Of a DNA stretch of 64,000 bases, positions 8,170-37,652 are shown piece by piece. Within the stretch, counting starts at the first letter, position 1. Each line of letters starts with the position of its first letter. Position numbers and translations under genes: made by a program. The DNA is taken from IMG/VR virus record IMGVR_UViG_3300030380_006483. One strand, written 5' to 3'. The DNA comes from a virus. Under the pieces are notes generated by a model. The model saw nothing but the letters and a program-made list of their open reading frames with translations, did not search any database and was not told the origin of the DNA.

Positions 8170-9255
8170 ATGGCAAGAAAAAAAGTAAGCCTTGGGGGCG
8201 ATATCTCCAAGTCTGTTAAGGGAACGTTCTCCCTTGATAAATTTAAAGCAGCAAAAGGTTTAGGATCATCTAATAATACCTTTAAAGAACAATCATGGAT
8301 ACCTTTATCTCCAGCGTGGCAAGAAATGGTATCATTACCTGGTGTTCCTGCAGGTCATATTACTTTATTACGTGGACACTCTGATACTGGTAAAACTACC
8401 GCTTTATTAGAGGTAGCTGTTAATGCTCAAAAAATGGGAATATTACCTGTTTTTATAGTAACTGAGATGAAATGGTCTTGGGAACATGCTATGATGATGG
8501 GTCTAGAAGTAGATCTTGAAAAAGATGAAGATGGTAATACAATAGGAGTTGATGGTAATTTTATTTTTGCTGATAGAGGGCAATTACCAACAGTAGAAGC
8601 TGTAGCAGGTTTTATGGCTGATTTAATGAATGAACAGAAAAAAGGTAATTTACCTATGGATATGGTATTCTTATGGGATTCTATTGGGTCTGTTCCATGT
8701 CAAATGTCAGTTGAAAAAGCTAAAAATAATAATGAATGGAATGCTGGAGCAATGTCTACTCAATTTGGTAATTTTATAAACCAAGAAATCTTATTATCAA
8801 GAAAAGAATCTAGTCCTTACACTAATACATTAGTTGCTATTAATAAGATTTGGGTTGAAAAACCAATAGGTCCTATGCAACCACCAACTATGAAAAATAA
8901 GGGTGGTAACACAATGTTCTTTGATTCAACATTAATAGTAACATTTGGTAATATCTCTAATTCAGGTAATTTAAAAGTTAATGCAGTTAAAGATGGTAAA
9001 AAGGTAGAATGGGCTAAAAAGGTTAAAACCGCTGTTGAAAAAAACCATATTAATGGTGTTACAACTACGGGTAAAATCATAGTTACACCTCATGGCTTTA
9101 TATCTGATACTAAAAAAGATATAGACAATTATAAAAAAGCTCACCAATCAGAATGGGGTGCTATATTAGGTGAAGGTCCAATTGAAATAGTTTTAGAAGG
9201 ATCTGAAGATGAAGATTTTGCTAATGTAGAAGCGATGGATGAAAGAACTCTATAA
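8170..9255 (+). CDS. recA: RecA/UvsX-like recombinase
   Basis: Walker A GHSDTGKT, WDSIGS, KGG..MFFDS motifs. Confidence 0.85.
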   Translation: MARKKVSLGGDISKSVKGTFSLDKFKAAKGLGSSNNTFKEQSWIPLSPAWQEMVSLPGVPAGHITLLRGHSDTGKTTALLEVAVNAQKMGILPVFIVTEMKWSWEHAMMMGLEVDLEKDEDGNTIGVDGNFIFADRGQLPTVEAVAGFMADLMNEQKKGNLPMDMVFLWDSIGSVPCQMSVEKAKNNNEWNAGAMSTQFGNFINQEILLSRKESSPYTNTLVAINKIWVEKPIGPMQPPTMKNKGGNTMFFDSTLIVTFGNISNSGNLKVNAVKDGKKVEWAKKVKTAVEKNHINGVTTTGKIIVTPHGFISDTKKDIDNYKKAHQSEWGAILGEGPIEIVLEGSEDEDFANVEAMDERTL

Positions 9256-10267
9256 AGATATACTCAACAACTTGCATGAGGAGTCCAATTTAGAGCCCCT
9301 ACACTTAAACAGTAGGGTGCTCTTAATTGATTCTATGAACACGTTTTTGCGTTCATTTGCTATGATTCCCGCTATTAATCCACAAGGAAATCATGTTGGT
9401 GGTTTAGTTGGTTTTTTAAAATCATTAGGATATGTTATTAAACTAATTAGACCAACTAGAGTTATCTTAGTTTTTGATGGTCAAGGTAATATTACAAATC
9501 GTAGAAATACCTATTCTGAATATAAAGCAAATCGTCAAATAAAAAGAATTACAAATTTTAAAGTTTTCTCAACATTAGCAGAAGAATCTGATTCAATTGC
9601 AACACAAATGTTAAGATTATTAGATTATTTAAAATCATTGCCCGTTAATATATCAATAATTGATAAAATAGAGGCAGATGATACTATAGCTTACCTATCA
9701 CAAAAATTAAAAGATGATATTATTATCTATTCTGCTGATCAGGATTTTTTACAATTAGTAGATGATAGAATAACTGTATATTCACCTATTAAAAAGAAAT
9801 TTTATAAACCAAATGATGTTTATGAGCAATATGGTATGCATCCCTATAATTTTATTACAATGAAATGTTTAATGGGTGATAAATCTGATAATTTACCAGG
9901 TGTTAAGGGATTAGGTCCTAAAAAATTAATGAAATATTTTCCTGAAATAGCAGGTGAAAAAAGATTTACTTTACAAGAGGCATATCAAAAAGCAACTGAT
10001 AAAGTAGAAGAACATGGAATATATGGTAATGTTCATTTATTTAAAAGTCAATTAGAAATTAATTATGAACTAATGTCTTTAAAAAATATTGAATTATTAG
10101 ATAAAGATCAAAAAGAACTAGATGAATTAATAGATTCTCCTCCTTATGATTTTAATAAAAAAAGATTTTTAGAGATGTATGAAAAAGATTTATTAGGTAG
10201 AGGAATTCCTAATACAGAATTTTGGTTAGCAGAAGTTTTTTCGTATCTTCAAAAATATAAAAAATGA
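9239..10267 (+). CDS. 5'-3' exonuclease/flap endonuclease (T4 RNase H / PolI N-terminal type)
   Basis: LLIDSMN, VFDG, YKANR, EADD, SADQDFLQL, GDKSDNLPGVKGLGPK. Confidence 0.9.
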   Translation: MKELYKDILNNLHEESNLEPLHLNSRVLLIDSMNTFLRSFAMIPAINPQGNHVGGLVGFLKSLGYVIKLIRPTRVILVFDGQGNITNRRNTYSEYKANRQIKRITNFKVFSTLAEESDSIATQMLRLLDYLKSLPVNISIIDKIEADDTIAYLSQKLKDDIIIYSADQDFLQLVDDRITVYSPIKKKFYKPNDVYEQYGMHPYNFITMKCLMGDKSDNLPGVKGLGPKKLMKYFPEIAGEKRFTLQEAYQKATDKVEEHGIYGNVHLFKSQLEINYELMSLKNIELLDKDQKELDELIDSPPYDFNKKRFLEMYEKDLLGRGIPNTEFWLAEVFSYLQKYKK

Positions 10268-22498: not shown

Positions 22499-24334
22499 AT
22501 GGCTACATTAACCAATAGGACTATAAGATCGACTTACGATCAACTTTTACAACTAGAAGATAATTTAATTCAAGACGGTTTTGGAACTCATTCTTTAAGT
22601 GGTTCCTATAATCTTACTGGAAGTCAATTTATATCTGGTAATCTTCATATTAATGGTACAGCTTCTATTGATTATTTAGTTTCTTCTTATGAATCATCAT
22701 CTATTATTTTTAGTTCAGGTTCAACAAAATTCGGAGATGACACTTCAGATACCCATGAATTTACGGGAAGTGTTCTAATAAGTGGTTCCGCTTTTAGTAC
22801 AAATTGGAGTGGATCCTTTACTGGTTCATTTATTGGTTTAGCAGATTCTTCATCTAATGCGACAAGAGCAGTTACTGCTTCACAAGCTGATAGAGCTACA
22901 ACATCTTCCCTTGCTAATAAGGCCTCTAATCTACAAATAGTTGGAGAAGATTCAAGTGCAGCCACTCATTATGTTCTTTTTGGCCCTAACTCATCAGGAG
23001 AATCTGATGTTAATGCAGATGGTAATTTAAATTATGTACCCAATACTGAAACTTTAACAGTTACTAAAGTAATAGGTAATTTAGAAGGAACAGCATCAAA
23101 TGCTGATACAGCATCTGTATTATTAGGTTCTGTAATTTCGGCTTCTCATTGTGAGACCGCTTCACTAGCAATTTCAACATCAGTAGTTAATGTTACTTCA
23201 ACTTCATTTGCAAACAGTGGTGATGGTCCATTTACTGGTTCATTTTCATCCAGTTTACCTTCATTATTATCCGGTTCATTTACAGGTTCCTTTACTGGCT
23301 CATTAGTTGGTAATACATCAGTTAGTAACATACTACAAACTGGTACTACTCAAACAACGGGATCTAATACTATTTCTGGGTCATTAACAATAACAGGAAG
23401 TTCAACTTTAGCAGTAAGAATAACTGGTAGTACAGCTTTAACAGGAAGTCTATTACAAAGTGGCAGTATTGTATCAACTGGAAGTTTATTACAAAAAGGT
23501 AGTACACAAATTTCAGGTTCTACTCTTTTATCAGGTTCATTACTTTTAACAGGTAGTAGTACCCTGGCATTAAGAGTTAGCGGTAGTACAGCTTTAACGG
23601 GTAGCTTACTACATAGTGGTAGTACAGCCCTAACGGGGAGTTTATTACAAAGTGGTAGTATTGCATTAACTGGAAGTTTATTACAGATTGGTACTACACA
23701 AACTACTGGATCTAATATTATATCTGGATCATTATTAATAACAGGTAGTTCTGCAATAGGACTTAGAATGTCTGGAAGTACGGCATTAACGGGTAGTGTT
23801 TTCCAAACAGGATCACTTAATGTAACTGGTAGTACTAATTTATCTGGATCTTTAGTAATAGTAGGAAATATTAATACGGGACAGGGTGTTACAGAAGTAT
23901 ATTTACAAAACCAAAATTTAAGAACAGCTGATTCAGTACAATTTAATGGACTAGGAGTTGGAACAGCACCATCAGGAGTAGCAGGAGCTATTTTAGCTAC
24001 TAATGATGTTGTAGCATTTGCTTCTTCAGATGAAAGATTAAAGGAAAATCTAGAACCAATTGGAAGTGCTACAGAAAAAATAGGACAATTAACTGGTTAT
24101 ACATTTGATTGGATTCCAATGGAAGGAATTCATGTACATTCAGGACATGATGTTGGAATTATTGCTCAAGAAGTAGAAAAGGTACTTCCTGAAGTTGTAG
24201 AAACAAGAAAAAATGGTTATAAAGCTGTTAAATATGAAAAACTTACAGCATTACTTATACAAGCCCTTAACGAACAACAAAAAGAAATTGATAACCTTAA
24301 AAGTAAGGTTGGATCGTTAGAAAATCGTTTGTAA
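22499..24334 (+). CDS. Tail fibre/spike-like protein with GS repeats and a C-terminal intramolecular chaperone (peptidase S74-like)
   Basis: SSDERLKEN..GYTFDW..DVGIIAQEVEKVLPEVV..YKAVKYEKL..LIQA plus terminal coiled coil; central GSxxx[ST] repeats. Confidence 0.85.
   Translation: MATLTNRTIRSTYDQLLQLEDNLIQDGFGTHSLSGSYNLTGSQFISGNLHINGTASIDYLVSSYESSSIIFSSGSTKFGDDTSDTHEFTGSVLISGSAFSTNWSGSFTGSFIGLADSSSNATRAVTASQADRATTSSLANKASNLQIVGEDSSAATHYVLFGPNSSGESDVNADGNLNYVPNTETLTVTKVIGNLEGTASNADTASVLLGSVISASHCETASLAISTSVVNVTSTSFANSGDGPFTGSFSSSLPSLLSGSFTGSFTGSLVGNTSVSNILQTGTTQTTGSNTISGSLTITGSSTLAVRITGSTALTGSLLQSGSIVSTGSLLQKGSTQISGSTLLSGSLLLTGSSTLALRVSGSTALTGSLLHSGSTALTGSLLQSGSIALTGSLLQIGTTQTTGSNIISGSLLITGSSAIGLRMSGSTALTGSVFQTGSLNVTGSTNLSGSLVIVGNINTGQGVTEVYLQNQNLRTADSVQFNGLGVGTAPSGVAGAILATNDVVAFASSDERLKENLEPIGSATEKIGQLTGYTFDWIPMEGIHVHSGHDVGIIAQEVEKVLPEVVETRKNGYKAVKYEKLTALLIQALNEQQKEIDNLKSKVGSLENRL
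23342..23866 (+). repeat. Intragenic 6/12-residue GS repeat array
   Basis: Repeated GSTALTGSLLQS-type units; DNA near-repeats such as ggtagtacagc(t/c)(t/c)taac. Confidence 0.85.
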
Positions 24335-24344
24335 ATTACCTTTA

Positions 24345-25454
24345 ATGAGTTATAATATTTTAGGAATTAACAGCAGTCATAATGGCTCAGTTTGTGTTTT
24401 ATGTGATGGGGAAATTGATTTTTTTGTAGAAGAAGAAAGATTTTCTAGAAATAAACATGAAGATACACCTGTAGAAATTTTAAAATATGTTGCTTCTAAA
24501 TATAAAATTGATGAAATTGCTATTGGTGGTTTAGAAATTCTTTTTGAAGCAAATGCTTCAAAAATTTATCAAAATTATTTAAAACTTTTATTCAAAAATA
24601 CTCCACTTACTAATTTATTAGGATCCCATCATCTTTGCCATGCTTTTTCTAGCTTTAGCAGTTCAGGTTTTAATAAAGCTTTATGTGTAGTTATAGATGG
24701 GTCTGGAAGTTTATTATATAGAAAAGAGGATGAAAAATTAATAGGAGTAGAAACTGAAAGTATTTTTACTTTTAAATATCCTACAAATATAAGCACTATA
24801 TATAAATCTTATAAAACTTTTAATCCTAATGATGATAAAAGTACAGATAGTAAATTAATGAATTTTAATATTACTTTAGGAAAATTATATGAAAGTATTA
24901 CTACTAAATTATTTGGACATTGGGTGTATGCCGGTAAGACTATGGGTTTATCTTCTTATGGAAAATATGACAAAAATATTCCTTCATTAATAATAAACCA
25001 AAGAGCTAATCCTAAATTTTTAGCAGGAAAAACTACAACTAATATTAAAATGGATCTTAATGATGTTGAAGGTACCATAAATACAAAGTATGATTATTTA
25101 TTTAAAGAAGAATTAAAGTCTAATATATGTTATCATTTACAAAATGAGATACAAGAAGTTGTAGGAGATATAATAGAAAAATATGTAAAAAAAACAGGAT
25201 TAAAAAAAGTTTGTGGCTCCGGAGGTTATTTTTTAAACTGTGTATCAAACTATTATTTAAAAAAAAGATTTCCTGATATAGATTTTTATTTTGACCCAAT
25301 ATCAAATGATGCAGGTATAGCATTAGGTGCTGCTAAATTATTGTGGCATATGAGAAAAAATGATACAACCATAAGACCTCAAAAAACATTATATAATGGG
25401 CCAAAATATACTAATAAAGAAATTTATAAAAAAATTCAAGAATATTTGGATTAG
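24345..25454 (+). CDS. Carbamoyltransferase (CmcH/NodU/TobZ family), N-terminal Kae1-like domain only (paralogue A)
   Basis: GINSSHNGS, EEERF.R.K, HHLCHA, VIDGSG, GKTMGLSSYG, GGYFLNC, DAG; ends after LYNGPKY with no YrdC-like domain. Confidence 0.85.
   Translation: MSYNILGINSSHNGSVCVLCDGEIDFFVEEERFSRNKHEDTPVEILKYVASKYKIDEIAIGGLEILFEANASKIYQNYLKLLFKNTPLTNLLGSHHLCHAFSSFSSSGFNKALCVVIDGSGSLLYRKEDEKLIGVETESIFTFKYPTNISTIYKSYKTFNPNDDKSTDSKLMNFNITLGKLYESITTKLFGHWVYAGKTMGLSSYGKYDKNIPSLIINQRANPKFLAGKTTTNIKMDLNDVEGTINTKYDYLFKEELKSNICYHLQNEIQEVVGDIIEKYVKKTGLKKVCGSGGYFLNCVSNYYLKKRFPDIDFYFDPISNDAGIALGAAKLLWHMRKNDTTIRPQKTLYNGPKYTNKEIYKKIQEYLD
25221..25303 (+). repeat. 83 nt near-identical repeat shared by paralogues A and B
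   Basis: 25221-25303 vs 28377-28459: 82/83 identical by manual alignment; partial copy around 31703-31781. Confidence 0.9.
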
Positions 25455-25476
25455 TTATATAGTTATATTATATTGG
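25445..25476 (+). promoter_or_regulatory. Bacteroidota-type promoter for queE-folE-PRTase
   Basis: TTTG-N20-TATATTGG; the -33 box lies in the last codons of paralogue A. Confidence 0.6.
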
Positions 25477-25491
25477 GACTAATATTAGTCC
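25476..25491. promoter_or_regulatory. Perfect 16 bp palindrome at the predicted TSS (operator or 5' hairpin)
   Basis: GGACTAATATTAGTCC equals its own reverse complement. Confidence 0.6.
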
Positions 25492-25525
25492 AAGTGACAG
25501 TAAAACCACTATAAAAAATTAACAT

Positions 25526-26299
25526 ATGCTTAAAAGAATAGACGATTATTCTAAACGTCTCCCAGTATTAGAATTATACACAGCAGTACAATCGGAGGGA
25601 TCCAGACAAGGATATCCTACTATTGTAGTTAGAACAACAGGCTGTACACACAGATGTTATTTTGGAGAAGGTGGATGGTGTGATAGCTGGTATACATCAA
25701 TACATCCTGAAAAAGGAAAATATAATTTTCAAGATATTATTGATATGTACGATAAACATCCCCATATAAAGGAGATGATGTTAACAGGAGGATCACCAAC
25801 AATGCATCCTGCTTTAGTAAATGAATTAACACACCTAGCAAATGAAAGAAATATTTTCATTACCATCGAAACTGAGGGATCTCATTTCCTTCCCACTGAC
25901 TTTCCTATTGGTCTCCTTAGTATTAGCCCTAAATTCAGTAATTCAGTTCCTACTCTCGGTGCTACAACTCCTCAAGGACATACTGTGGAGCAGAAGATGA
26001 TTGATAGACATAACAAGTATAGATTAAATAAAGAAGCTATAAAAAAGTCTATTGAATATCATAATGATTACCATATTAAACCCGTATTAGATAAAGATTT
26101 AACTATGGTAGGTGAAGTAGAAGAATTCATTAAAGAACTAGACATTCCAGATCATAAAATTTGGGCAATGCCAGCAGGTGATGATAGGGAATCATTATTT
26201 GAAAGTTATGGTCCTGTAATGAACTTTGTAAGGGATAGAGGTTGGAGATATACCGGTAGATCCCATATAATGGCCTTTGATACAGAAAGAGAGGTTTAA
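25526..26299 (+). CDS. queE: 7-carboxy-7-deazaguanine synthase (radical SAM)
   Basis: VQSEG..G..VRTTGC; CX3CX7C cluster motif; LTGGSP, ETEG, SISPK. Confidence 0.88.
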   Translation: MLKRIDDYSKRLPVLELYTAVQSEGSRQGYPTIVVRTTGCTHRCYFGEGGWCDSWYTSIHPEKGKYNFQDIIDMYDKHPHIKEMMLTGGSPTMHPALVNELTHLANERNIFITIETEGSHFLPTDFPIGLLSISPKFSNSVPTLGATTPQGHTVEQKMIDRHNKYRLNKEAIKKSIEYHNDYHIKPVLDKDLTMVGEVEEFIKELDIPDHKIWAMPAGDDRESLFESYGPVMNFVRDRGWRYTGRSHIMAFDTEREV

Positions 26300-26434
26300 A
26301 TGGATAAGGAAGAAGCACTCCAAATTTTAGAAGAAATAAAAGAAAATGTAAATGTCTGCTGTGCCGTTACTATGGAACCAGAAGATGTATTAGAATTAAT
26401 AGATAAATTAGAAAGTTATATAAATGAACAATAG
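26300..26434 (+). CDS. 44 aa acidic protein (not in ORF track)
   Basis: MDKEEALQILEEIKENVNVCCAVTMEPEDVLELIDKLESYINEQ*; coupled to queE and folE. Confidence 0.55.
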   Translation: MDKEEALQILEEIKENVNVCCAVTMEPEDVLELIDKLESYINEQ

Positions 26435-27116
26435 AAAACAACAACACACAGATTTAGAATCTGTACCAGTAGGTTACGCAAATGGTGTAGCACCTGGATT
26501 TCCTTTAACAGATAAGGAAAAACAAAAAATGATAGATCGTGCTGCAAAAGCATATGGTAAATTCTTAACTGAATTAAAATGTGATTGGGAAAATGATCCT
26601 AATTCGGCTGATACACCAAGACGTGTAGCTAAAGCCTATGTAAATGATTTATGGGAAGGTAGATATACTGCTATGAGTGAAGTAACATCTTTCCCAAGTG
26701 ATGGTTATGATGGTATAGTAATAGAAAGAAATATACCAATTACATCAATGTGTTCTCACCACCACCAAACTATAAAAGGTTTAGTACATATAGGTTATAT
26801 CGCAGATGAAGATGGTAGAGTAGTTGGATTATCTAAATTAAATAGGATAGTAGAATTATTTGGTAGAAGAGGAGCAATACAAGAACAATTAACATCAGCG
26901 ATTCACAATGCTGTAAACACTATTTGTACGAATAATAAAGGTGTTATTGTTACAGTAGTAGCTACACATAATTGTGTTAGTTGTAGAGGAGTAAAACATC
27001 ATGGAGCTTCAATGGTTACAACAAAAGCATCTGGTGTATTTATGCAAAATGAAAACTTAGCTAGAAAGGAGTTTTTTGATTCAATTAAAGTTAATAATGG
27101 AAATCATCCTGTATAA
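26424..27116 (+). CDS. folE: GTP cyclohydrolase I
   Basis: DTPRRVAK, SMCSHH, GLSKLNR, IQEQLT, HNCVSCRGV. Confidence 0.93.
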   Translation: MNNRKQQHTDLESVPVGYANGVAPGFPLTDKEKQKMIDRAAKAYGKFLTELKCDWENDPNSADTPRRVAKAYVNDLWEGRYTAMSEVTSFPSDGYDGIVIERNIPITSMCSHHHQTIKGLVHIGYIADEDGRVVGLSKLNRIVELFGRRGAIQEQLTSAIHNAVNTICTNNKGVIVTVVATHNCVSCRGVKHHGASMVTTKASGVFMQNENLARKEFFDSIKVNNGNHPV

Positions 27117-27553
27117 TGGTAATAGAATTAAATGATAAAGCATTCCTATCATGGGATGACATAGAAAAACAAGTTGATAAACTTGTAGAACAAATAAATA
27201 AAATGGATAAAAAACCATTTTACATTTATGGTGTGCCTCGTGGAGGAGCCATTCCAGCTGTATGGTTATCTCATAAAACTGGTATAAAATATCAACAAAT
27301 TAATTCATCCCAAATATCAAAATCAGCAGATTTATCTCATGTATTGATAGTAGATGATATTTGTGATTCAGGAGAAACAATACAAAAACTTAAAGAAGAT
27401 TTCCCTAAGTGTTTAACTGCAACTTTATATCATAAAGAATCAGCAATTGATAAACCAGATATTTATGGAGAAATATCCACGTATAATTGGTTATATTTTC
27501 CTTGGGAAAACCAACAATCCTCAGAAGTAAGAGATAACACATATGGGTTATAA
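27116..27553 (+). CDS. Type I phosphoribosyltransferase (Gpt/XGPRT-like)
   Basis: GVPRGG, PRPP loop LIVDDICDSGET, W.YFPWE. Confidence 0.88.
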   Translation: MVIELNDKAFLSWDDIEKQVDKLVEQINKMDKKPFYIYGVPRGGAIPAVWLSHKTGIKYQQINSSQISKSADLSHVLIVDDICDSGETIQKLKEDFPKCLTATLYHKESAIDKPDIYGEISTYNWLYFPWENQQSSEVRDNTYGL

Positions 27554-28607
27554 TATTCTAGGAGTTACTCCTGGTCATAATGGTTCTATAGCTTTAGTTT
27601 CAAACGGAAAATTAGTTTTTTATTTAGAAGAAGAAAGATTATCTAAGGTAAAAAAAGATGCTAATCCATTAAAGACACTTTATTTTTCATTACAAAAATA
27701 TAAGATAGATGAAGTAGTATTATGTGGTGCCGGACGTCAATCACCAAACTTAGTCCGTAAAGGAGAGGATTTATATTATTCTATATCTAGAAAATTTTAT
27801 CCTAAAGTAAAATTCACTAGTTATGAAGATCATCATCATCTAACACATGCAGCTTCTTCATTTTATACTTCTGGTTTTCAAAAATCTTTAGGAGTAGTAA
27901 TTGATGCCCAAGGATCCAATTTTAATTATAAAGGAGAAAAAATATTTGAAAATGATTCTTTATTTTATTGTGAATATCCTAATAATATTAATCCAATCCA
28001 TAAAATATATCTTTCTGATTCTATTAGTCATTCAACTAAACAAGAAAAAATTACACCCTTTTTTTCAACAGCAAAGGTTTATGAAGCAGTAAGTGAATAT
28101 TTAAATTTTCATGAAGAAGAGGGTAAAACTATGGGTTTATCTTCTTATGGTAAGTCTAATTCTTTTATTTTAGATTTTTTAAAGGATGGAATAATAAACC
28201 CTAAATATTATACACATGAAAAAACTTATGGTTCTATATACCCAAAAATGAAGTTCCCTAAAAATATCCCTCCTAAAGATATAGCATGGGAAATTCAAAA
28301 TAAATCCCAACAAATAGTAGGTGATTATATAGAAAAAGGAATTAAAGAAACAGGATTAAAACAAGTTTGTTGCGCTGGAGGTTATTTTTTAAACTGTGTA
28401 TCAAACTATTATTTAAAAAAAAGATTTCCTGATATAGATTTCTATTTTGACCCAATATCCCATGATGGTGGAACCTCAATTGGAGCAGCTTTATATAGAT
28501 GGTACAACCACTCTCAGGATAAGAGTATAAGACCTAGAAAAAATTTGTATAATGGTTTTAAATATTCTAAAAAAGAATTAAAAAAAATAATTAAAAAATA
28601 TTTATAA
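27543..28607 (+). CDS. Carbamoyltransferase, N-terminal domain only (paralogue B)
   Basis: GVTPGHNGS, EEERLSK.K, HHLTHA, GKTMGLSSYG, GGYFLNC, DGG; ends after LYNGFKY. Confidence 0.85.
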   Translation: MGYNILGVTPGHNGSIALVSNGKLVFYLEEERLSKVKKDANPLKTLYFSLQKYKIDEVVLCGAGRQSPNLVRKGEDLYYSISRKFYPKVKFTSYEDHHHLTHAASSFYTSGFQKSLGVVIDAQGSNFNYKGEKIFENDSLFYCEYPNNINPIHKIYLSDSISHSTKQEKITPFFSTAKVYEAVSEYLNFHEEEGKTMGLSSYGKSNSFILDFLKDGIINPKYYTHEKTYGSIYPKMKFPKNIPPKDIAWEIQNKSQQIVGDYIEKGIKETGLKQVCCAGGYFLNCVSNYYLKKRFPDIDFYFDPISHDGGTSIGAALYRWYNHSQDKSIRPRKNLYNGFKYSKKELKKIIKKYL

Positions 28608-28609
28608 TT

Positions 28610-28996
28610 ATGAAAGACTTTAATTCAAAAGATAAATCTAAAGGGTTAGGAGATACAATAGCAAAAATTACTAATGCTACTGGTTTAGATAAAATAGCCG
28701 ATGCTGTAGCTAAAGCAGCAGGCGCCGAAGATTGTGGTTGTAATAAAAGGAGAAAAACATTAAATGAACTTTTTCCTTACACTAAAAAAACAGAAATTAA
28801 AAAACCACATATTAATACTAAACCTTTAGATAAAATTACTGGAAAATATGAGGTTATTCAAAAAATTCATTGTACCTTACCAGAATTAGGAAGGATAACT
28901 TTTAATAAAGGTTCTGTTTTATTAATAGATAAAAAACACCCTTTATATAAAGATATTTCTTTTTACTATAAAAAAAATATTATTAAAAAAATATAA
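28610..28996 (+). CDS. Hypothetical protein with GLGD..DCGC motif
   Basis: KGLGDTIAKIT..DCGCNKRR..LN.LFPY, a pattern I recall from phage ORFs; function unknown. Confidence 0.65.
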   Translation: MKDFNSKDKSKGLGDTIAKITNATGLDKIADAVAKAAGAEDCGCNKRRKTLNELFPYTKKTEIKKPHINTKPLDKITGKYEVIQKIHCTLPELGRITFNKGSVLLIDKKHPLYKDISFYYKKNIIKKI

Positions 28997-30736
28997 ATGG
29001 CATATAATATTCTAGGAATTAATCCTGGCCATAATGGTTCTGCCGCCGTAATTTCAGATGGTAAGTTAGTTTATTATTTAGAAGAAGAAAGATTAACAAA
29101 AGAAAAAAGAGATGGAAATCCTTTTAAAACTATAATCGATATTTGTTCTAAGTTTTCTATTAACGAACTAATAATAGGGGGAACAAACACCCCAGCTGAA
29201 AGGTCAACTTTATCTTATACTAAAGAAAATCCCTATTTTTCTCTTGTAAGAAAATTAAATTTAGGAATAGAAGACTATACAAATTTATCCAGCAGCCACC
29301 ATTTATTGCATGCTTTTAGTAGCTTACATAATTCCCCATTTCAATCTGCTGCTGTTATAGTAGTAGATGGATGTGGGTCTTGGCTACACTATAATGATAT
29401 TGCTCCTTTTTCTTCACTTGCAATAGAAGAAGGTAAAAATAATAATGTTCATGAAGCTGAAAGTATATATGAGATAAATACAAATAAATTTCCAATTGAA
29501 GAGGGGATAGAAAAACATTATGTTAATTATATTAGTAATAATATTAATGTTGAAACTAAATTTATTAATAGAAATCCTGGAATAGTTAAAGTATATGAAG
29601 GTATAACCGATTATTTAGGTTTTCATCCTTTAGATGCAGGAAAAGTAATGGGTTTATCTTCTTATGGTAAGTCAAATCCAAACATTCCTCCTTTATTTGT
29701 AAATCATAAAGGTAATTTAGATATATTTAAACCATCATACCCAGCAAAATGTGAATTATTAACTAACAACACCCCAGTACTACATGGTAATCAAAAAACC
29801 AAAGACTTTCATCATGATAAATCAAAACTTAATATGGTTTATGCTGATTTAGCTTATGAAGTACAAACCCAAACAGAAAAAGAAATACATCACTTAATTG
29901 AAAAAGCTATAAATTTAACAGGTAATAATAATATTTGTATTACTGGAGGGTATGGGTTAAATTGTGTAGCTAATTATAACATGAAAAAAAAATTCCCTAA
30001 GATAAACTTTTTTCATGATCCTGTATCTTTTGATGGGGGAATATCAATAGGTGCAGCATACTTAGGATGGTTAATAAAAAAAGAGAAAAACGATAAATCA
30101 AAATCATTTTCACTTTATTTAGGCCCTAAATATTCTTTAAAAAAATATAAAAAACAAATTAAAAATTATTCAAAAATGTTTAACACTTATAAAGTAAATT
30201 ATAAAGATGTAGCTAAAATAATTTCAGAAAGAAATATAGTTACAATATTCCAAGGCAGATCAGAGGCTGGTCCTCGTGCTTTAGGAAATAGGTCCATTTT
30301 ATACGATCCAACAGACCCTAATGGTAAGGATTTTGTAAATAAAGTTAAAAAAAGAGAATGGTTTAGACCATTTGCTGGTACTGTTTTATTAGAAAAAGCT
30401 AATGAATATTTTGATATGGCTGGTTTAAAAGAATCTCCGTTTATGATGTATGCAATGGATGTTTGGCCTGATAAACAAGATAAAATTCCTTGTATTACCC
30501 ACGTAGATGGTACTTGTAGAATCCAAACATTAACCGAAGAACAAAATCCACATTATTATAAATTAATTCAAGAATTTGAAAAAATAACAGGTGTACCTAT
30601 TTTATTTAATACTTCATTTAATTTAGCAGGTGATCCACTTGTAGAGACAATTGAAGATGCATTAGAAACAATGCTTAAAAGTGAAATGAAATATATGTAT
30701 GTTCCTGAATTAGAAATGCTTTTAGAGAAAAAATAA
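28997..30736 (+). CDS. Full-length carbamoyltransferase (Kae1-like plus YrdC-like domains; paralogue C)
   Basis: N-domain motifs plus GRSEAGPRALGNRSIL, KKREWFRPFA, SPFM, HVDGTCRIQT, LFNTSFN. Confidence 0.92.
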   Translation: MAYNILGINPGHNGSAAVISDGKLVYYLEEERLTKEKRDGNPFKTIIDICSKFSINELIIGGTNTPAERSTLSYTKENPYFSLVRKLNLGIEDYTNLSSSHHLLHAFSSLHNSPFQSAAVIVVDGCGSWLHYNDIAPFSSLAIEEGKNNNVHEAESIYEINTNKFPIEEGIEKHYVNYISNNINVETKFINRNPGIVKVYEGITDYLGFHPLDAGKVMGLSSYGKSNPNIPPLFVNHKGNLDIFKPSYPAKCELLTNNTPVLHGNQKTKDFHHDKSKLNMVYADLAYEVQTQTEKEIHHLIEKAINLTGNNNICITGGYGLNCVANYNMKKKFPKINFFHDPVSFDGGISIGAAYLGWLIKKEKNDKSKSFSLYLGPKYSLKKYKKQIKNYSKMFNTYKVNYKDVAKIISERNIVTIFQGRSEAGPRALGNRSILYDPTDPNGKDFVNKVKKREWFRPFAGTVLLEKANEYFDMAGLKESPFMMYAMDVWPDKQDKIPCITHVDGTCRIQTLTEEQNPHYYKLIQEFEKITGVPILFNTSFNLAGDPLVETIEDALETMLKSEMKYMYVPELEMLLEKK

Positions 30737-30740
30737 AATT

Positions 30741-31937
30741 ATGAAAATATTAGGATTTAATCCTTCTCATCATAGCTCTACTTGTATAGTAAATAATGGT
30801 GAAATAGAATACTTCATCCAAGAAGAAAGAATAAATAAAATGAAATATGTTTCTTTCCCAATGGAATCTTTTATAGAACTCCTAAAAAACAGAACCCCAG
30901 ATGTAGTATGTTTCGCTGGTGCTAGTATATCTTTTCCACTTTGTGGCCAATCAGATGACAACCTTTGGCATGTAATAACTGATATTTACTTAAAAGAAAA
31001 TTATGAATTTTTTGATTTTTCTTTTAGTTATGATCAAAAGAATAAACCTAATGATGGAGGATTCCATCATATTGCACATGCTTCTAGTGCTTTTTACAAT
31101 TCAGGCTTTAAAGAAGCTTTATGTTTAGTAGCAGATGGATTAGGATCTATTATTTTAAATAGTGGTACTGAAACTGAAACTCTTTTTAAATTTTCATATC
31201 CATCTTTTTTTGAAATACTACATAAAAAACTATATATGGACAACTTTCCTAAACATGTATCAGAATCTCTCCCAGATAATATGACAATAACAACAAAAGT
31301 AAACCTAAGTAGAGTTTATGAAACTGTAACAATGTGGTTAGGGTTTAGTAGGAATGATGCTGGTAAAACTATGGGTTTATCTTCTTATGGAAAATATAAT
31401 AAAAATATTCCTAATTTTTTAGATAAAGAAGGAGATGGAGACCCCAATGTAATTATTGTTGACCGTGATAGAAAAGGAGAATATGAAATTGAAAAAGGAT
31501 ATCAGTGTACTTTTATAGATAAAGAAAAGAATCCTTATTTAAAAAACCAAGATGCAACAAAATGGCACCATAATAAATCAAATATAACAGACTTAGAAAA
31601 AGACGTAGCTTGGAAAGTTCAAGATGAAACACAAAAAAGAATAGGTGATATAATAGAAAAAGGAATTAAAGAAACAGGATTAAAACAAGTTTGTTGTAGT
31701 GGGGGTTATTTTTTAAATTGTGTTGCAAACTATTATCTTGTAAAAAGATTTCCTGATATAGATTTTTATTTTGACCCAATAGCTAATGATGCTGGTACAG
31801 CTATGGGAATAGCTCAATTAGTTTATCATCACAAAACTAGAGATACTACTATAAGACCTTTAAAATCTTTATATTTAGGTCCAAAATATCCAAAAGAAGA
31901 ACTATTAAAAGAAATTAAAAAATATGTGGATAACTAA
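30741..31937 (+). CDS. Carbamoyltransferase, N-terminal domain only (paralogue D)
   Basis: GFNPSHHSS, QEERI, HHIAHA, GKTMGLSSYG, GGYFLNC, DAG; ends after LYLGPKY. Confidence 0.85.
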   Translation: MKILGFNPSHHSSTCIVNNGEIEYFIQEERINKMKYVSFPMESFIELLKNRTPDVVCFAGASISFPLCGQSDDNLWHVITDIYLKENYEFFDFSFSYDQKNKPNDGGFHHIAHASSAFYNSGFKEALCLVADGLGSIILNSGTETETLFKFSYPSFFEILHKKLYMDNFPKHVSESLPDNMTITTKVNLSRVYETVTMWLGFSRNDAGKTMGLSSYGKYNKNIPNFLDKEGDGDPNVIIVDRDRKGEYEIEKGYQCTFIDKEKNPYLKNQDATKWHHNKSNITDLEKDVAWKVQDETQKRIGDIIEKGIKETGLKQVCCSGGYFLNCVANYYLVKRFPDIDFYFDPIANDAGTAMGIAQLVYHHKTRDTTIRPLKSLYLGPKYPKEELLKEIKKYVDN

Positions 31938-31956
31938 TTTAAAAATATTATATTAT
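31925..31956 (+). promoter_or_regulatory. Possible promoter for the MazG-like gene
   Basis: TGTG-N20-TATATTAT inside the end of paralogue D, same register as the 25445 promoter. Confidence 0.45.
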
Positions 31957-31960
31957 CAAT

Positions 31961-32464
31961 ATGAAAAAATCAAACGTACCTTTTGTAAATGAAGTAGAAG
32001 ATTTTAATAATTTAATGTCTAAACCAAATAATTATACACCTACTATTCCTGAAAAAAAAGAATGGCAATTTGTATATGACTTTGTTTTAGAAGAATTAGA
32101 AGAATATAAAGAAGCATGTGAAAAGGGAGACATTGTAGAAATATTAGATGCTTTATGTGATATAGCTTATGTATCTTTAGGAAATGGTACTATGCTTCAT
32201 GGCCTAAAAGATAAAATATGGCCAGCTTATCAGGAAGTTCAGGCATCAAATATGTCAAAGGCATGTAAAACTGTAAACGAAGCTATTGAAACTACTCTTA
32301 AAAGATCTGAGGAACAAGGGGAACCTTGTCATTGGGAACAAGTAGGCGATATGTATATTGTGTATAGAACACGTGATCGTAAAGTAATGAAATCACTTAC
32401 TTACTTTAGACCCGATCTAAAACAATTCTTTACCGATGAAGAAATTACTAACAGTACTAAGTAA
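31961..32464 (+). CDS. MazG-like all-alpha NTP pyrophosphohydrolase (PRA-PH-like)
   Basis: LEELEEY..EILDALCDIAYV..EVQASNMSK..KVMK. Confidence 0.82.
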   Translation: MKKSNVPFVNEVEDFNNLMSKPNNYTPTIPEKKEWQFVYDFVLEELEEYKEACEKGDIVEILDALCDIAYVSLGNGTMLHGLKDKIWPAYQEVQASNMSKACKTVNEAIETTLKRSEEQGEPCHWEQVGDMYIVYRTRDRKVMKSLTYFRPDLKQFFTDEEITNSTK

Positions 32465-33746
32465 AGGAACCCTCCCCTTTATTATTGCATTCTCTGCCCT
32501 GTCAGTTAGTGCTTCAGCCGCTTTCTATTCAGTTAGCGGTTTAAGTAAACTATTTGCTGGGGCTTCATTTGAAGTAATTATTATGGCTGGTTCATTAGAA
32601 GTAGCTAAATTAGTTACTGCCTCATTATTATATCAATATTGGGACAAGATAAATAAAATTCTTAGAACCTATTTAATTATAGCAACTATTATACTTGTAT
32701 TAGTAACTAGTATGGGTATTTATGGTTTTTTAAGTGCTGCTTATCAGGAGACATACCAAAAATTATCTATTAATGAAAATAGAATAGAATTTTTAGACCA
32801 AAAAAGAGAATTTTACCAACAAGATGTAACTAGATATGATGATGAGTTAGCAAGAATATCTGGAAATATCTCAACTCTATCTAATGCTAGAGCAACCTCA
32901 ATCCAAGTTAGAGATACTACTTCATCTACAGGGGTTAGAAATACTATTTCAACTGCCGAGCTAAGATTAGCTCAAAGTAGAATAGAAGTTGAAGAAAAAA
33001 ATAGAAATGATGTTCAAGCTAGAAGAGAAATAGCAGCTGATAGTTTGCAAAAATATCAACTTGAAATATTAGACCTAGAAAATGATACCGAAATAACAGG
33101 TGAGTTAGGTCCATTACAATATCTATCAGGTTTAACTGGTACCCCAATGGATAAAATAATTAACTGGTTATTATTAGTAATTATTTTTGTATTTGACCCA
33201 TTAGCTATATCTTTAGTAGTTGCTGCTAACTTTGCGTTTGCTCAGGCTTTTCCTAAAAAAGAAGAAGATTTAATTTTAGATTTACCTGATTTTGATCCTT
33301 TTCCTAGTGATTCGGAAGCAGAACTTTATCCCGAAGAAGAAGAAGAAAAAAAAGTAAATATAAATGATTGGGATATAGAAGAAGCAGAAAAAAGAATGGA
33401 TATTATAGGTCAAAATGGTAATGAAGGATTACATTATGATGATACGGAAATAAAAGAATATATTGCAACTGCAGAAGATAAAATTATGGCTGCTACTAAA
33501 TCTATTATTGAAAAACAAAAAATAGAAGATAATAAATTAAAAGATAAATTGGATGCTGCTAATAAAGAAATAAATGAATTAGATAGATCTAGTTTAAAAA
33601 TAATTGATTCTATAAAACATATTAATGATTATTTAAAAATTCATGCACCTTATTATGATAATCAAGGAATAGCTCTTGATAATATAAAACTTGGCTTTGC
33701 CGAAGAGGATGATTATATTGACGATGATAATAGTAAAATATATTAA
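32436..33746 (+). CDS. Membrane protein with coiled coil and acidic tail
   Basis: Three N-terminal TM segments (SVSGL..GSLEVAK..GIYGFLS), coiled coil, TM with FVFDPLA. Confidence 0.65.
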   Translation: MKKLLTVLSKGTLPFIIAFSALSVSASAAFYSVSGLSKLFAGASFEVIIMAGSLEVAKLVTASLLYQYWDKINKILRTYLIIATIILVLVTSMGIYGFLSAAYQETYQKLSINENRIEFLDQKREFYQQDVTRYDDELARISGNISTLSNARATSIQVRDTTSSTGVRNTISTAELRLAQSRIEVEEKNRNDVQARREIAADSLQKYQLEILDLENDTEITGELGPLQYLSGLTGTPMDKIINWLLLVIIFVFDPLAISLVVAANFAFAQAFPKKEEDLILDLPDFDPFPSDSEAELYPEEEEEKKVNINDWDIEEAEKRMDIIGQNGNEGLHYDDTEIKEYIATAEDKIMAATKSIIEKQKIEDNKLKDKLDAANKEINELDRSSLKIIDSIKHINDYLKIHAPYYDNQGIALDNIKLGFAEEDDYIDDDNSKIY

Positions 33747-33748
33747 AA

Positions 33749-34339
33749 ATGATTGGTTTTCCTGAGTTTCAATTTACAAAACCTACATATATTCATCAAG
33801 AAGAAAATTTTTTTACTGGTGAAGAAGTAGATAAAATATTAAATGATTTAAAAGATGTATCTTATGAAAGGGGTGCAACAGGTGATTTTAATTCAAATAA
33901 AGATTCTTTATCACTTCAGATACGAAAAAGTAATATAAAGTGGATTCCACATGAAGAAAAATTTCATTGGTTATATGATAAACTATCAGCCCAAATTCAT
34001 TTAATAAATTCTTTTACTTGGAAATTTAATCTTAATAATAGTTTTGAACACATTCAATACACTGAATATGATTCAAAAGAAAAAGGACAATATAATTGGC
34101 ATGTAGATGTAGGAGAAGGAATGTCTTGTTTTAGAAAAATTTCAATTTCAATTCAACTTTCAAATGCTAGTGAATATGATGGGGGAGAATTTAGAATTTT
34201 TAACCAAAAAGGTCCAAGTCCTAAATCTAGAGGAACTGCAATTATTTTTCCTTCTTTTATTCCCCATAAAGTTACACCCGTAACTAGAGGAAATAGGAAA
34301 TCTTTAGTATTGTGGGTTGGTGGTAGTCCTTATAAATAA
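33749..34339 (+). CDS. 2OG-Fe(II) oxygenase (PKHD/prolyl-hydroxylase-like)
   Basis: IQYTEY..WHVD..RKISISIQL..YDGGE..FPSFIPHKVTPVTRGNRKSLVLW. Confidence 0.88.
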   Translation: MIGFPEFQFTKPTYIHQEENFFTGEEVDKILNDLKDVSYERGATGDFNSNKDSLSLQIRKSNIKWIPHEEKFHWLYDKLSAQIHLINSFTWKFNLNNSFEHIQYTEYDSKEKGQYNWHVDVGEGMSCFRKISISIQLSNASEYDGGEFRIFNQKGPSPKSRGTAIIFPSFIPHKVTPVTRGNRKSLVLWVGGSPYK

Positions 34340-34342
34340 TTT

Positions 34343-36094
34343 ATGTATAAAAAAATATACGAGCAAGGTAGAGGAGAAAATAAACATTTAATACATCTTT
34401 GGACAGACGAGGGTTACGAAAAGATTGAATGGAACAACTATGCTTATAAAGAATGTTCGCCTAATGATGCAGAATTTAAAGGTTTGAAAGGTGAACCACT
34501 TCGTAAAACACACACTTGGGATAGAAAAACCCCTAAACTCCACTTTAGTGATATCTCAGCTCACCAAAAATTCCTTATAGAAAAATATGGTATTGACGAT
34601 GAACCTTCTACTTCACATAAGGAGGTTTTTTTTGATATCGAGTGTGAGATGGGAGGAGCATTGACAGAAGAATATATTTCTAATGCACCTAAGCCAATTA
34701 CTTCTATTGCTTGGTATGATAAACAAGCAGATTGGTGGTCAATCGTTATTTTAGATAAAAAAGGTCAATTAAAACATACTAAAACTAAAAATAAAGAAAT
34801 TATACCTTTACCACATGAGGCAGATCTATTAGATACATTTTTAAATAAAATGGAAGAAATTCAACCAGATATGTTAATTGGGTATAATAGTGACTATTTT
34901 GATATTCCTTATTTATACTATAGAATGTGTAATGTGTTGGGAGAAACAGATGCAAAAAGATTATCCCCTATAGGAATAGTTAAATACAAAAAGAATAATC
35001 AATATTGGTATAAAAAAGACCAATTTGTAGATATAGCAGGTGTTGAATCTCTTGATTATATGAGATTACATAAAAAATATAGTTGGGAGGATGAACCAAG
35101 TTGGAAGTTAGATTCTATTGGAGAAAAATATGCTGGTATAAATAAAATTGAATATGATGGTTCTTTAGATAGATTATTTGAAGAGGATATACATAAATTT
35201 ATTCAATATAACTTTGTTGATGTTGAAATATTAGTTGAATTAGATAAAAAATTACAATATATAGCTTTAACAAAAAATTTAGCCCATAAAGGTAAAGTAA
35301 AATATAGTGAAGTGTATGCTTCATCTAAAATCCATGATGGTGCTATCTCAGCTTACCTATTATCTCAGGGAATAATACCCCCAGGACGCCCTAAGGGGGA
35401 AAGTAAATTAAATTATGCTGGTGGTTACTTATTTTGCCCTAAAGCAGGGTTATACAAATATATGTTTGATGAAGATTTAACATCACTATATCCTTCTATT
35501 ATAATGACTTTAAATATAGGTAGAGAAACTATTATAGGAAAAATAATTACAGATACATTACCCGAAAAATTAGAAGATTTTGGTCCTTATGGTGGTAAAT
35601 CTGATCGAAATAACTATCTAGGTTTAGGTGATTTAAAAGAAATGGATCCAGATGATGAAATTAGAGTTATGGATCCTAATGAAAATATTCAAAACACAAC
35701 TGTAGGTAAAGTAATTGAAGTAATAGAAAAGAATAATTTTTCAATAGCGGCAAATGGAACCTTTTTTAGAACTGATAAACAATCAGTATTATCTACTATT
35801 TTAAATAAATGGTTTGATGAAAGGGTCATTTATAAAAATAGAATGAAGCACTGTTACCAAAAGGGTGATAATGAAGGTGGTGCTAAAAATCATTTACTAC
35901 AATATACAATGAAAATTTTACTGAATTCTTTATATGGAGCTACTGCCTTACCATCATTTAGATATGGTTTACCAAAATCTATACTAAGTGAAGCAATTAC
36001 ATTATCAGGGTGGAGAATCATACAAGAATCTGCATTAGTTGCTAATACACATATGAATAAAGTTTTAAGGAATGAAATAAAGTTAGCATTATAA
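34343..36094 (+). CDS. Family B DNA polymerase, N-terminal part (exonuclease, motifs A and B)
   Basis: FFDIEC, GYNSDYFDIPY, YNFVDV, DLTSLYPSII, KILLNSLYG; no DTDS. Confidence 0.9.
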   Translation: MYKKIYEQGRGENKHLIHLWTDEGYEKIEWNNYAYKECSPNDAEFKGLKGEPLRKTHTWDRKTPKLHFSDISAHQKFLIEKYGIDDEPSTSHKEVFFDIECEMGGALTEEYISNAPKPITSIAWYDKQADWWSIVILDKKGQLKHTKTKNKEIIPLPHEADLLDTFLNKMEEIQPDMLIGYNSDYFDIPYLYYRMCNVLGETDAKRLSPIGIVKYKKNNQYWYKKDQFVDIAGVESLDYMRLHKKYSWEDEPSWKLDSIGEKYAGINKIEYDGSLDRLFEEDIHKFIQYNFVDVEILVELDKKLQYIALTKNLAHKGKVKYSEVYASSKIHDGAISAYLLSQGIIPPGRPKGESKLNYAGGYLFCPKAGLYKYMFDEDLTSLYPSIIMTLNIGRETIIGKIITDTLPEKLEDFGPYGGKSDRNNYLGLGDLKEMDPDDEIRVMDPNENIQNTTVGKVIEVIEKNNFSIAANGTFFRTDKQSVLSTILNKWFDERVIYKNRMKHCYQKGDNEGGAKNHLLQYTMKILLNSLYGATALPSFRYGLPKSILSEAITLSGWRIIQESALVANTHMNKVLRNEIKLAL

Positions 36095-36122: not shown

Positions 36123-37652
36123 ATGAATATATCAATTATAGGAGGAGGTACAGCAGGTTGGTTATCTGCTCTTCATCTAAATAAAATAAATCCAACAGCT
36201 GATATTTCTTTAATTGAATCTAAAGATATAGGAATAGTAGGAGTTGGTGAAGGAGCAGTTCCTCTTTTTGGGGATATGTTATTAGATCTTAATATAGACA
36301 TTATTGATTTTGTTAATAGTGTTGACGGTACTTTTAAATTAGGGATTTCTTTTGAAGGTTGGAAAAATTTAGATCATAAATTTTTATATGGGTTTCCTAA
36401 TTTTAATAGTAATGATGTAGCTAATTTTGAAAAAACTAAATTTGGTTCACAGAAATATGATATATATCCTATTTTTGCAAATATGATAGCTAATTCTCAA
36501 GATTGTAATATAATGCAAAATTCAATTTTAAGTTACTTAAATAAAGTTCCTTTTACTTTTGATGAAGAATCTAAAAATGGTATCACCCAAGATGGAATTT
36601 CTCACGTATCTTTCCATTTTGATGCCTACAAAGCAGCTCAGTATTTTAGAAAAATTTCAGAATCTAGAGGTATAAAAAGAATTGAAGGAAAAGTTATTGA
36701 TTTTAAATCTTCTAAAGACCAAAATATAAAAAGTATTATTACTGAAGATAAAAAAGAACATAAATGTGATTTTGTTTTTGATTGTACAGGGTTTGCTAAA
36801 TTAATTATAGGTAAGCACTTTAAATCAAAATGGACTAGCTATAAAAGCCACTTAACTACTAATGAAGTTATAAGTTTTAGATTAAAGTATAAAGAAAATG
36901 AAGAAGTATTTCCTTATACTAAGTCGATTACAATGAAAAATGGTTGGATGTGGCAGATTCCATTACAAAGTAGAATTGGGGCTGGGTATGTTTATGATAA
37001 TAGATACATTACTGAATCTCAAGCTAAAGAAGAAGTTGAAGAATTTTTAGGTGAAGAGATAGAAATATTAAAAAAAATTAATTTTGAACCTGGAATTTTT
37101 GAAGAGGGATGGATTAAAAATTGTGTATCAATAGGTCTTTCTAGTGCCTTTGTAGAACCTTTAGAATCTACTTCTATAATGTTTACTATTTTGCAATTAA
37201 GATTTTTTAAAAGTAAAGATTTATTAGAACCAAATGAATTACTTCAAAAAAGATATAATAAATATCAAACAAAATCATTTAAATCAATAATTGATTTAAT
37301 TCAATTACATTATTTGTGTGATAGAAATGATACTAAATTTTGGAAAGATAGAAAAAAATTACCTATAACAACTCCTTTACAAAAACGTTTAAATGATTTT
37401 AAAAAATATCCTCTATCAGATTCAACATTTTTTGATGGTGTATGGGGGGCTTTAGGGTTTTTTGTAGTAGGATATGAAAGTAGTGTTAAAAATTTTCCTA
37501 AAAAACTCTACCAATTTTATAATAAAAAGCATAATTTTGATGGATTATTAAAAAATTGGATTAAAGATTATAAACAATATTTTGATAATAAACTACCTAA
37601 ATACTTTAAACATAAAGATTTATTAGATTATTTTAAAACAATAAAACCATGA
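36123..37652 (+). CDS. Flavin-dependent (tryptophan-type) halogenase
   Basis: GGGTAGW, GVGEG, TFKLGI (catalytic Lys position), DCTGF, WMWQIP signature, EPLEST. Confidence 0.85.
   Translation: MNISIIGGGTAGWLSALHLNKINPTADISLIESKDIGIVGVGEGAVPLFGDMLLDLNIDIIDFVNSVDGTFKLGISFEGWKNLDHKFLYGFPNFNSNDVANFEKTKFGSQKYDIYPIFANMIANSQDCNIMQNSILSYLNKVPFTFDEESKNGITQDGISHVSFHFDAYKAAQYFRKISESRGIKRIEGKVIDFKSSKDQNIKSIITEDKKEHKCDFVFDCTGFAKLIIGKHFKSKWTSYKSHLTTNEVISFRLKYKENEEVFPYTKSITMKNGWMWQIPLQSRIGAGYVYDNRYITESQAKEEVEEFLGEEIEILKKINFEPGIFEEGWIKNCVSIGLSSAFVEPLESTSIMFTILQLRFFKSKDLLEPNELLQKRYNKYQTKSFKSIIDLIQLHYLCDRNDTKFWKDRKKLPITTPLQKRLNDFKKYPLSDSTFFDGVWGALGFFVVGYESSVKNFPKKLYQFYNKKHNFDGLLKNWIKDYKQYFDNKLPKYFKHKDLLDYFKTIKP

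Follow-up and report, generated by a model that had tools for sequence, protein, structure and literature searches.

Probable short-tract gene conversion between ancient carbamoyltransferase paralogues of a T4-like phage

Positions 24345-31937 of the IMG/VR virus record IMGVR_UViG_3300030380_006483, a 64,000-nucleotide stretch of DNA that we call the window, hold four genes with a Kae1-like Carbam_trans_N domain. Among these carbamoyltransferase paralogues, A to D, identity is 34-44% for the proteins and 53-61% for the DNA, yet the genes share stretches that are nearly identical. Such stretches are very probably the footprints of recurrent, short-tract, non-reciprocal interlocus gene conversion between ancient, tandemly dispersed paralogues of the Kae1-like carbamoyl-transfer domain in a T4-like phage. 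Directly visible are tracts of 20-120 nucleotides (nt), tract-sharing pairs that differ by strain, tract ends that lie at the edges of conserved motifs, and hybrids and deletions at the same sites. Conversion is probably accompanied by occasional crossovers, both within the donor-binding core. The four genes are the following (aa, amino acids).

24345-25454, + strand: paralogue A, 369 aa, Carbam_trans_N (Kae1-like) domain alone (Pfam PF02543, E=1.6e-24)
27543-28607, + strand: paralogue B, 354 aa, N domain alone (PF02543)
28997-30736, + strand: paralogue C, 579 aa, full-length, Carbam_trans_N plus Carbam_trans_C (PF02543 and PF16861, E=9.5e-62)
30741-31937, + strand: paralogue D, 398 aa, N domain alone (PF02543)

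A preliminary description of this DNA had reported a 20-mer, ATGGGTTTATCTTCTTATGG, as exact in all four genes. It occurs exactly four times, at 24942, 28131, 29648 and 31371, and no match to it appeared in 100 shuffles with up to 3 mismatches permitted. The longer shared stretches in that description were recovered as exact runs in a codon alignment of A to D: 82 of 83 nt between A and B (a 65-nt run at 25221/28377, one mismatch, and a 17-nt run at 25287/28443), 44 nt between B and D (28329/31653) and 40 nt between A and D (25262/31742). Further runs join B and D (24 nt, 28418/31742) and A and D (30 nt, 24939/31368). B and C have exact runs of 26 nt (28131/29648) and, near the N terminus, 22 nt (27620/29074), the latter absent from the earlier account; sharing between C and the other paralogues is limited to this N-terminal run and the 20-26-nt anchor. 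The shared features are listed below.

24939-24968, + strand: anchor 1 in A, codons for GKTMGLSSYGK, with the 20-mer at 24942-24961; 30 nt shared with D and 23 nt with B
28122-28156, + strand: anchor 1 in B, exact runs of 29 nt with D, 26 nt with C and 23 nt with A
29648-29673, + strand: anchor 1 in C, from exact-run search and codon alignment
31362-31397, + strand: anchor 1 in D, from exact-run search and codon alignment
25221-25303, + strand: A copy of the A=B tract, encoding GGYFLNCVSNYYLKKRFPDIDFYFDPI; 25262-25301 is identical to D as well
28377-28459, + strand: B copy of the A=B tract, an A-type patch missing from B of the related contig L114
28329-28372, + strand: B copy of the B=D tract, 44 nt, IEKGIKETGLKQVCC
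31653-31696, + strand: D copy of the B=D tract, from codon alignment and relatives
31742-31781, + strand: D copy of the A=D tract, 40 nt, KRFPDIDFYFDPI
27620-27641, + strand, in B, and 29074-29095 in C: N-terminal anchor shared by B and C, a 22-nt exact run

Codon bias in the window is strong, with the same codon expected at about 62% of identical residues, and only the A/B pair passes a within-window permutation of silent sites (P=0.003). The window by itself is therefore suggestive, and it is the relatives that supply the decisive evidence. IMG/VR yielded no close relative: a query with protein B matched at 25-30% only, while neither a query with protein P0005 nor a lineage-specific degenerate pattern gave any match. 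A scan of JGI metagenomes with one pattern, degenerate at all synonymous positions and encoding KRFP[DN][IV][DN]FYFDP, returned seven contigs. The relatives used here carry the following genes, with a prime marking alleles of the window's genes; ORF stands for open reading frame.

Contig L114: collinear with window positions 27006-34583 at 90.6% identity; B', orf128' (the 128-aa ORF), C', D' and MazG'
Contig L115, from the same sample as L114: fibre gene, A' (83% identical in aa) and QueE'
Contig L116: A'' (95% identical in aa)
Contigs L117 and L120: C', D', a fifth N-only paralogue, E, and MazG'
Contig L118: a distant relative
L117, 516-1568, - strand, and L120, 2191-3243, + strand: paralogue E, 350 aa, N domain alone, between D and the MazG-like gene

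Paralogue E is 33-40% identical to A-D, and both the window and L114 are without it. In ENA, contigs (7176 nt; P0123 and P0189) link a B orthologue with a D orthologue.

The main shared block encodes IEK..TGLK.VC..GGYFLNCV.NYYL.KRFPDIDFYFDP, and it is here that orthologous alleles differ by patches copying another paralogue. Over the 83-nt stretch, A and B of the window differ at one site, whereas window B and B of L114 differ at about 10 (counted from the alignment), which makes the tract younger than the genomes. Within the A-type patch of window B (28377-28459), nine consecutive sites that distinguish the two B orthologues all agree with A (P=0.004), and the patch carries synonymous variants that are unique to the A allele of the window, being found in A of neither L115 nor L116. 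Contig L119, which is independent, carries this same patch, so that the patch is not an artefact of the window's own assembly. Other strains have other pairs patched. Over 122 nt, B of L114 equals D in both the window and L120; in D of L114 the patch is of A type, with 58 nt that match A of L115 (same sample) exactly; and D of L117 shows a third arrangement of the block. In the N-terminal region, B of L114 matches E of L120 over 65 exact nt. We took the sites that differ between two orthologues, recorded the longest run matching a paralogue and permuted the site order; this gave P=3e-5, <1e-5 and 2e-5 for the B/D tracts. Two other statistics were less useful: quartet counts of 2:2 site patterns (genome versus orthologue grouping) were uninformative, since conversion gives 3:1 patterns, and in a gene-wide ABBA/BABA-like asymmetry the signal of short tracts was too diluted. 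The earlier suggestion of ongoing recombination or gene conversion among the paralogues is thus upheld by mosaic alleles, hybrid genes and inter-anchor deletions, all present in related metagenome contigs.

A more distant phage, IMG/VR 3300025769_016515 (G001), has two paralogues that are 53% identical in protein and share an exact 53-nt tract (806-858 versus 2549-2601). The tract, NPKEWHKDPSKITDLEK, lies in a normally variable insert, and the GGYFLNCV block of this phage has many silent differences. Conversion in the family is therefore not limited to one lineage or one site.

The genes that exchange these tracts are old. Orthologues of A occur in public metagenomes at 95%, 83% and about 50% identity, and those of B at 95-88% and 59%; for A, B and D, close orthologues are 83-95% and distant ones 50-59% identical, versus 41-44% between paralogues. 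A maximum-likelihood tree from which the anchor and block columns had been dropped puts A, B and D into separate clusters with their orthologues from other phages, with support of 99, 91 and 100; one B-labelled row falls outside the B clade. Judged from these comparisons, the duplications that produced A, B and D are ancient and older than the divergence of the genomes compared. We rejected recent duplication as an explanation, since identical tracts between paralogues of such age cannot be its leftovers. Derived states are also shared across the lineage. A, B and D all read DIDFYFDP, whereas distant orthologues of all three read FYFEP. Likewise, D of this lineage reads MGLSSYGKYNKNIP as A does (MGLSSYG), while distant D orthologues read MGLAPYG, which makes the SS form lineage-specific.

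Crossovers are suggested by two hybrid sequences and by one absent gene. Contig L119 (1344 nt) is 99.7-99.9% identical to the window and joins 24173-24964, with the 5' half of A, to 28122-28705, with the 3' half of B. The switch falls inside a 23-mer shared at anchor 1, ACTATGGGTTTATCTTCTTATGG; the hybrid frame is intact (357 aa), and the join deletes the 3' half of A, the QueE, FolE and phosphoribosyltransferase (PRTase) genes and the 5' half of B, a deletion of 3.2 kb. The second hybrid, protein P0059, encoded in ENA contigs, agrees with D of L114 at nearly every residue up to GGYFLNCV; beyond that point it is identical to A of L115 right to its end. The third case concerns E. In the window and L114, the last ~12 nt of D and the first 40 nt of the spacer behind it agree with the end of E in L120 at 11 of 12 and 37 of 40 positions, versus only 6 of 12 and 11 of 40 for the end of D in L120. 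Because the 3' end of D and the spacer are of E type, E was most likely lost by recombination between the homologous 3' ends of D and E.

What is exchanged in this lineage are the conserved core motifs, GKTMGLSSYG and GGYFLNCV..RFPDIDFYFDP. The main block aligns to residues 289-355 of TobZ, from the GG..LN motif through the conserved Asp, and we take it to be the nucleotide- and metal-binding core, given what has been published on TobZ and Kae1. In alignments of the paralogues, these short conserved motifs lie on either side of hypervariable coding segments. In all linked relatives the inter-anchor segments are orthologous (83-95% identity). We also split 282 homologues at the anchors and labelled the three variable segments of every homologue by the paralogue that each matched best. 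Among the confident assignments, 55 of 59 were concordant (DDD 47, AAA 4, BBB 4), and P0059 was the only clear cross-paralogue mosaic among the 282; three BCB or BEB cases hinge on a short middle segment. The net effect observed is thus a core that is homogenised while divergent islands are kept, and not a reassortment of specificity segments; among the sequences compared, there is hardly any sign of established alleles whose variable segments have been swapped.

These results do not bear out the proposal of the preliminary description that exchange at the anchors shuffles the variable segments and diversifies acceptor specificity: the exchanged tracts are the core motifs, the variable segments stay orthologous, and one mosaic was seen in 282. 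A fuller form of the idea would have the anchors act as built-in recombination sites, comparable to His boxes, that reassort variable segments into new acceptor specificities. Hybrid genes do exist, L119 (A/B, with its intact frame) and P0059 (D/A), the 53-nt tract of G001 lies in a variable insert, and copy number varies, E being present or absent. Set against this are the orthology of the variable segments and the excess of concordant assignments over the single mosaic; L119, without QueE, FolE and PRTase, is possibly a dead-end molecule, and both hybrids may be artefacts. We therefore regard adaptive shuffling as unlikely, though it is the best placed of the competing accounts. A related conjecture, to which we would give slightly more weight while still doubting it, is that the core motifs double as recombination sites and, in natural populations, continually generate hybrid transferases and copy-number variants, among them the A/B fusion without the deazaguanine genes, the D/A fusion and the loss of E; the array would then be an evolvable enzyme cassette system, comparable to His-box shuffling in T-even tail fibres, its sites maintained by conversion.

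Could collapsed or mis-joined repeats have given false identity and false hybrids? The data are all metagenomic, the junction of P0059 lies in a 58-nt exact repeat and the join of L119 also falls in a repeat, so that an assembly chimera is a serious alternative for P0059. For L119, whose repeat is 23 nt only, shorter than usual final assembly k-mers, an error of the assembler is less likely than either a genuine recombinant molecule or a chimera formed in vitro. The patches themselves are harder to attribute to assembly. Each requires two switches within about 100 nt, which is not normal for assemblers, and patches occur in at least five contigs from different samples; besides the window's B patch, repeated in the independent sample of L119, the D block is repeated in L120. 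A general artefact of assembly or consensus is very improbable.

Equally hard to sustain is the view that only alleles recombine, between co-infecting related phages, with transfer between paralogues rare or absent. Allelic recombination is expected at the population level in T4-like phages, and the 122-nt tract of B in L114 equals D of the window and L120 and not D of its own contig. The patches, however, are of other-paralogue type (A in B, A in D, D in B), so that an ectopic event is needed at the origin of each, whichever genome donated it.

A further alternative invokes no exchange at all: the runs would come from strong AT codon bias, together with catalytic motifs that do not vary and synonymous sites that are short of saturation. 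The same-codon expectation of 0.62 is indeed high, pairs that include C are close to expectation (0.62-0.65 observed versus 0.60 expected), and the within-window permutation gives no significance to the runs of A/D and B/D. For A/B, A/D and B/D, however, the same-codon rate is 0.76-0.77 overall, and 0.84-0.88 in anchor and block columns versus 0.71 outside. When codons were redrawn from window usage with the proteins fixed (1000 draws), the observed A/B run (P<0.001), the B/D run (P=0.002) and the four-way 20-mer (P<0.001, null maximum 13 nt) all exceeded the null. Four-way codon identity at the five degenerate codons of G-L-S-S-Y has a probability of ~1e-5 under window usage, calculated analytically. 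In an unbiased IMG/VR sample of GK.MGLSSYGK, drawn with a degenerate pattern, 95 unrelated viral instances used 56 encodings, and this 20-mer was found in one of the 95 (3.7% expected under window codon usage). Paralogue tracts are moreover closer than orthologous alleles, the patches vary by genome, and the clustering P values reach <1e-5. Codon bias alone was accordingly rejected, and the account without exchange retains hardly any credibility.

Least likely of all is that the tracts stay identical because the DNA or RNA as such is under selection, for instance as an RNA structure, an internal start, or a site for packaging or protein binding that every copy has: the 20-mer begins with ATG and is common to every paralogue of the lineage, C and E included, but synonymous sites in the block diverge between orthologues as fast as elsewhere or faster, A of L115 has two synonymous changes within the 20-mer, the identical pair changes by genome, and other phages encode the motif in 56 ways. 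Measured as identical residues with different codons, orthologue divergence in anchor and block columns versus outside is 0.10-0.18 versus 0.04-0.11 for A, 0.14 versus 0.12 for B and 0.12 versus 0.05 for D (window/L114). Silent divergence, the check that the preliminary description had named, is hence low between paralogues of the same genome and not between orthologues, and nucleotide-level constraint is largely refuted.

Under recurrent conversion, exchange would begin at conserved core motifs with enough residual identity, namely the N-terminal strand, GKTMGLSSYG and the stretch that runs from the GG..LN nucleotide motif to the metal-binding Asp. A single event would copy 20-120 nt, until flanking DNA divergence of ~40-50% blocks branch migration and ends the tract, and every event would renew the identity that the next requires. 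Occasional resolution as a crossover would give hybrid genes and deletion or duplication of the intervening DNA. Selection would presumably keep the divergent, possibly acceptor-binding segments paralogue-specific by removing events that overwrite them. The exchanges may be carried out by the phage's own recombination system during recombination-dependent replication, and the UvsX pathway is plausible as the responsible machinery because a UvsX-like gene is present in the window.

8170-9255, + strand: UvsX-like recombinase (phrog_97, E=1.8e-15), a candidate enzyme for the exchanges
9239-10267: exonuclease gene, next after the UvsX-like gene

Minimal homology for T4 and RecA recombination was reportedly determined by Singer et al. 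in 1982 and by Shen and Huang in 1986, and the tract sizes found here lie within that range.

Several observations weigh against recurrent conversion as we describe it or restrict its reach. Non-reciprocity and the direction of transfer are inferred, and the direction from A to B follows solely from the A-type state that all A alleles share. The within-window permutation of silent sites fails to reach significance for A/D and B/D. A protein tree restricted to the 69 block columns does place A and D of the lineage away from their distant orthologues, as concerted change would, but it is poorly resolved; in approximately unbiased (AU) tests on these 69 columns, orthologue monophyly was not rejected (p=0.09 and 0.14). 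Two other phage contigs with multiple paralogues, G002 and G003, have no tract >18 nt, so that the process does not extend to every member of the family. The relatives are without exception metagenome contigs, and L114 and L115 are placed in one population solely by their shared sample. Finally, the hybrid contigs may be chimeric, especially P0059, whose junction lies in the exact 58-nt repeat.

Interlocus gene conversion and concerted evolution are known for bacterial ribosomal RNA operons, tuf, and globin and other eukaryotic duplicates (PMC8022953; PMC3966223; PMC3728101). The phage array resembles these systems in its short non-reciprocal tracts between diverged copies, its conserved islands of identity, its retained divergent islands, and tracts younger than the duplication. 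It differs in that the copies are very old (34-44% in protein), the patches are motif-sized (20-120 nt), and the setting is an enzyme array of a lytic-type T4-like phage, documented in environmental populations. We found no description in the literature of conversion among phage carbamoyltransferase paralogues. That the process is ordinary interlocus gene conversion, of which the carbamoyltransferase array is a new instance, is solidly supported.

Two systems of segmental exchange invite comparison. In the tail-fibre adhesin genes of T-even phages, the closest parallel among phages, recombination between conserved "His boxes" reportedly swaps specificity segments, a finding ascribed to Tetart et al. 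in 1998. The two cases have in common a T4-type phage, short conserved motifs that serve as recombination sites within divergent coding sequence, and the possibility of hybrids. There, however, variable host-range segments are swapped between phages, whereas here conserved motifs are copied between enzyme paralogues, and swaps of variable segments appear only in the two possibly artefactual hybrids. Neisseria pilE/pilS and Borrelia vlsE likewise show segmental conversion between related copies through short conserved stretches. Unlike them, the phage array has no silent truncated donors, no single expression site and no sign of programmed directionality, and every copy is full-length and intact.

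The array is thus probably an unusually clean natural case of ectopic gene conversion in a virulent-type phage, with paralogues older than the lineage and different pairs patched in different strains. Trees and synonymous divergence (dS) of the "carbamoyltransferase auxiliary metabolic genes (AMGs)" common in marine phages will mislead if such blocks are kept in, and short exact repeats in the cluster can yield hybrid contigs, real or artefactual. The preserved divergent islands are the segments most likely to decide which acceptor an N-domain-only enzyme uses. Should the hybrids prove real, they would make the array an example of how phage enzyme repertoires gain and lose members.

As to the enzymes themselves, the HH..H, DG and GG..LN..D motifs are invariant in the carbamoyltransferase genes and align to TobZ, matching the HxxxH...D metal motif and the GG..LN nucleotide motif of the family. 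The YrdC-like C domain (PF16861) is found in C only; A, B and D stop right after the N domain and are N-domain-only relatives rather than complete carbamoyl-adenylate-making enzymes. The Kae1-like Carbam_trans_N domain of A-D, to which C adds the YrdC-like domain, is that of the TobZ/NodU/CmcH/GdmN O-carbamoyltransferases (PDB 3VEN, 7VYJ). The adenylate-forming domain of these enzymes is missing from A, B, D and E, and membership of the family concerns products, not recombination. Several other viral contigs (L084-L102; for example L094:1516-3112 and L088:433-2029) have the N and C domains as two adjacent ORFs, a split enzyme.

The window is AT-rich (GC ~28%), and every gene examined lies on the + strand. 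Its gene content includes, with the UvsX-like recombinase and the exonuclease, a DnaB-like helicase, ribonucleotide reductase, a GroEL-like chaperonin and a DNA polymerase fragment. Between A and B are a QueE-like radical SAM gene, a GTP cyclohydrolase I gene (FolE) and the phosphoribosyltransferase gene; the interval between B and C holds the 128-aa ORF, and a MazG-like gene lies 3' of D. The DNA of the three genes between A and B (25526-27553) is ~71-73% identical to deazaguanine-pathway genes of Flavobacterium phage immuto and Cellulophaga phage phiST, and the carbamoyltransferases may have some link to the modification of DNA with deazaguanines.

Upstream of A, positions 22499-24334 encode a 611-aa fibre-like protein rich in Ser, Thr and Gly, with direct repeats (23425-23604 versus 23617-23796) that are 77% identical. 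Its orthologue in L116 is 61% identical and 74 aa shorter, whereas the adjoining genes are 94-95% identical, which marks the fibre gene as locally hypervariable. Further downstream, the DNA polymerase B ORF (34343-36094) has 583 aa and stops 5' of a halogenase-like gene. The latter, a 509-aa ORF at 36123-37652, directly 3' of the polymerase fragment, matches the PHROG "tryptophan halogenase" (E=1.8e-101). The DNA polymerase of the window phage may be split or interrupted.

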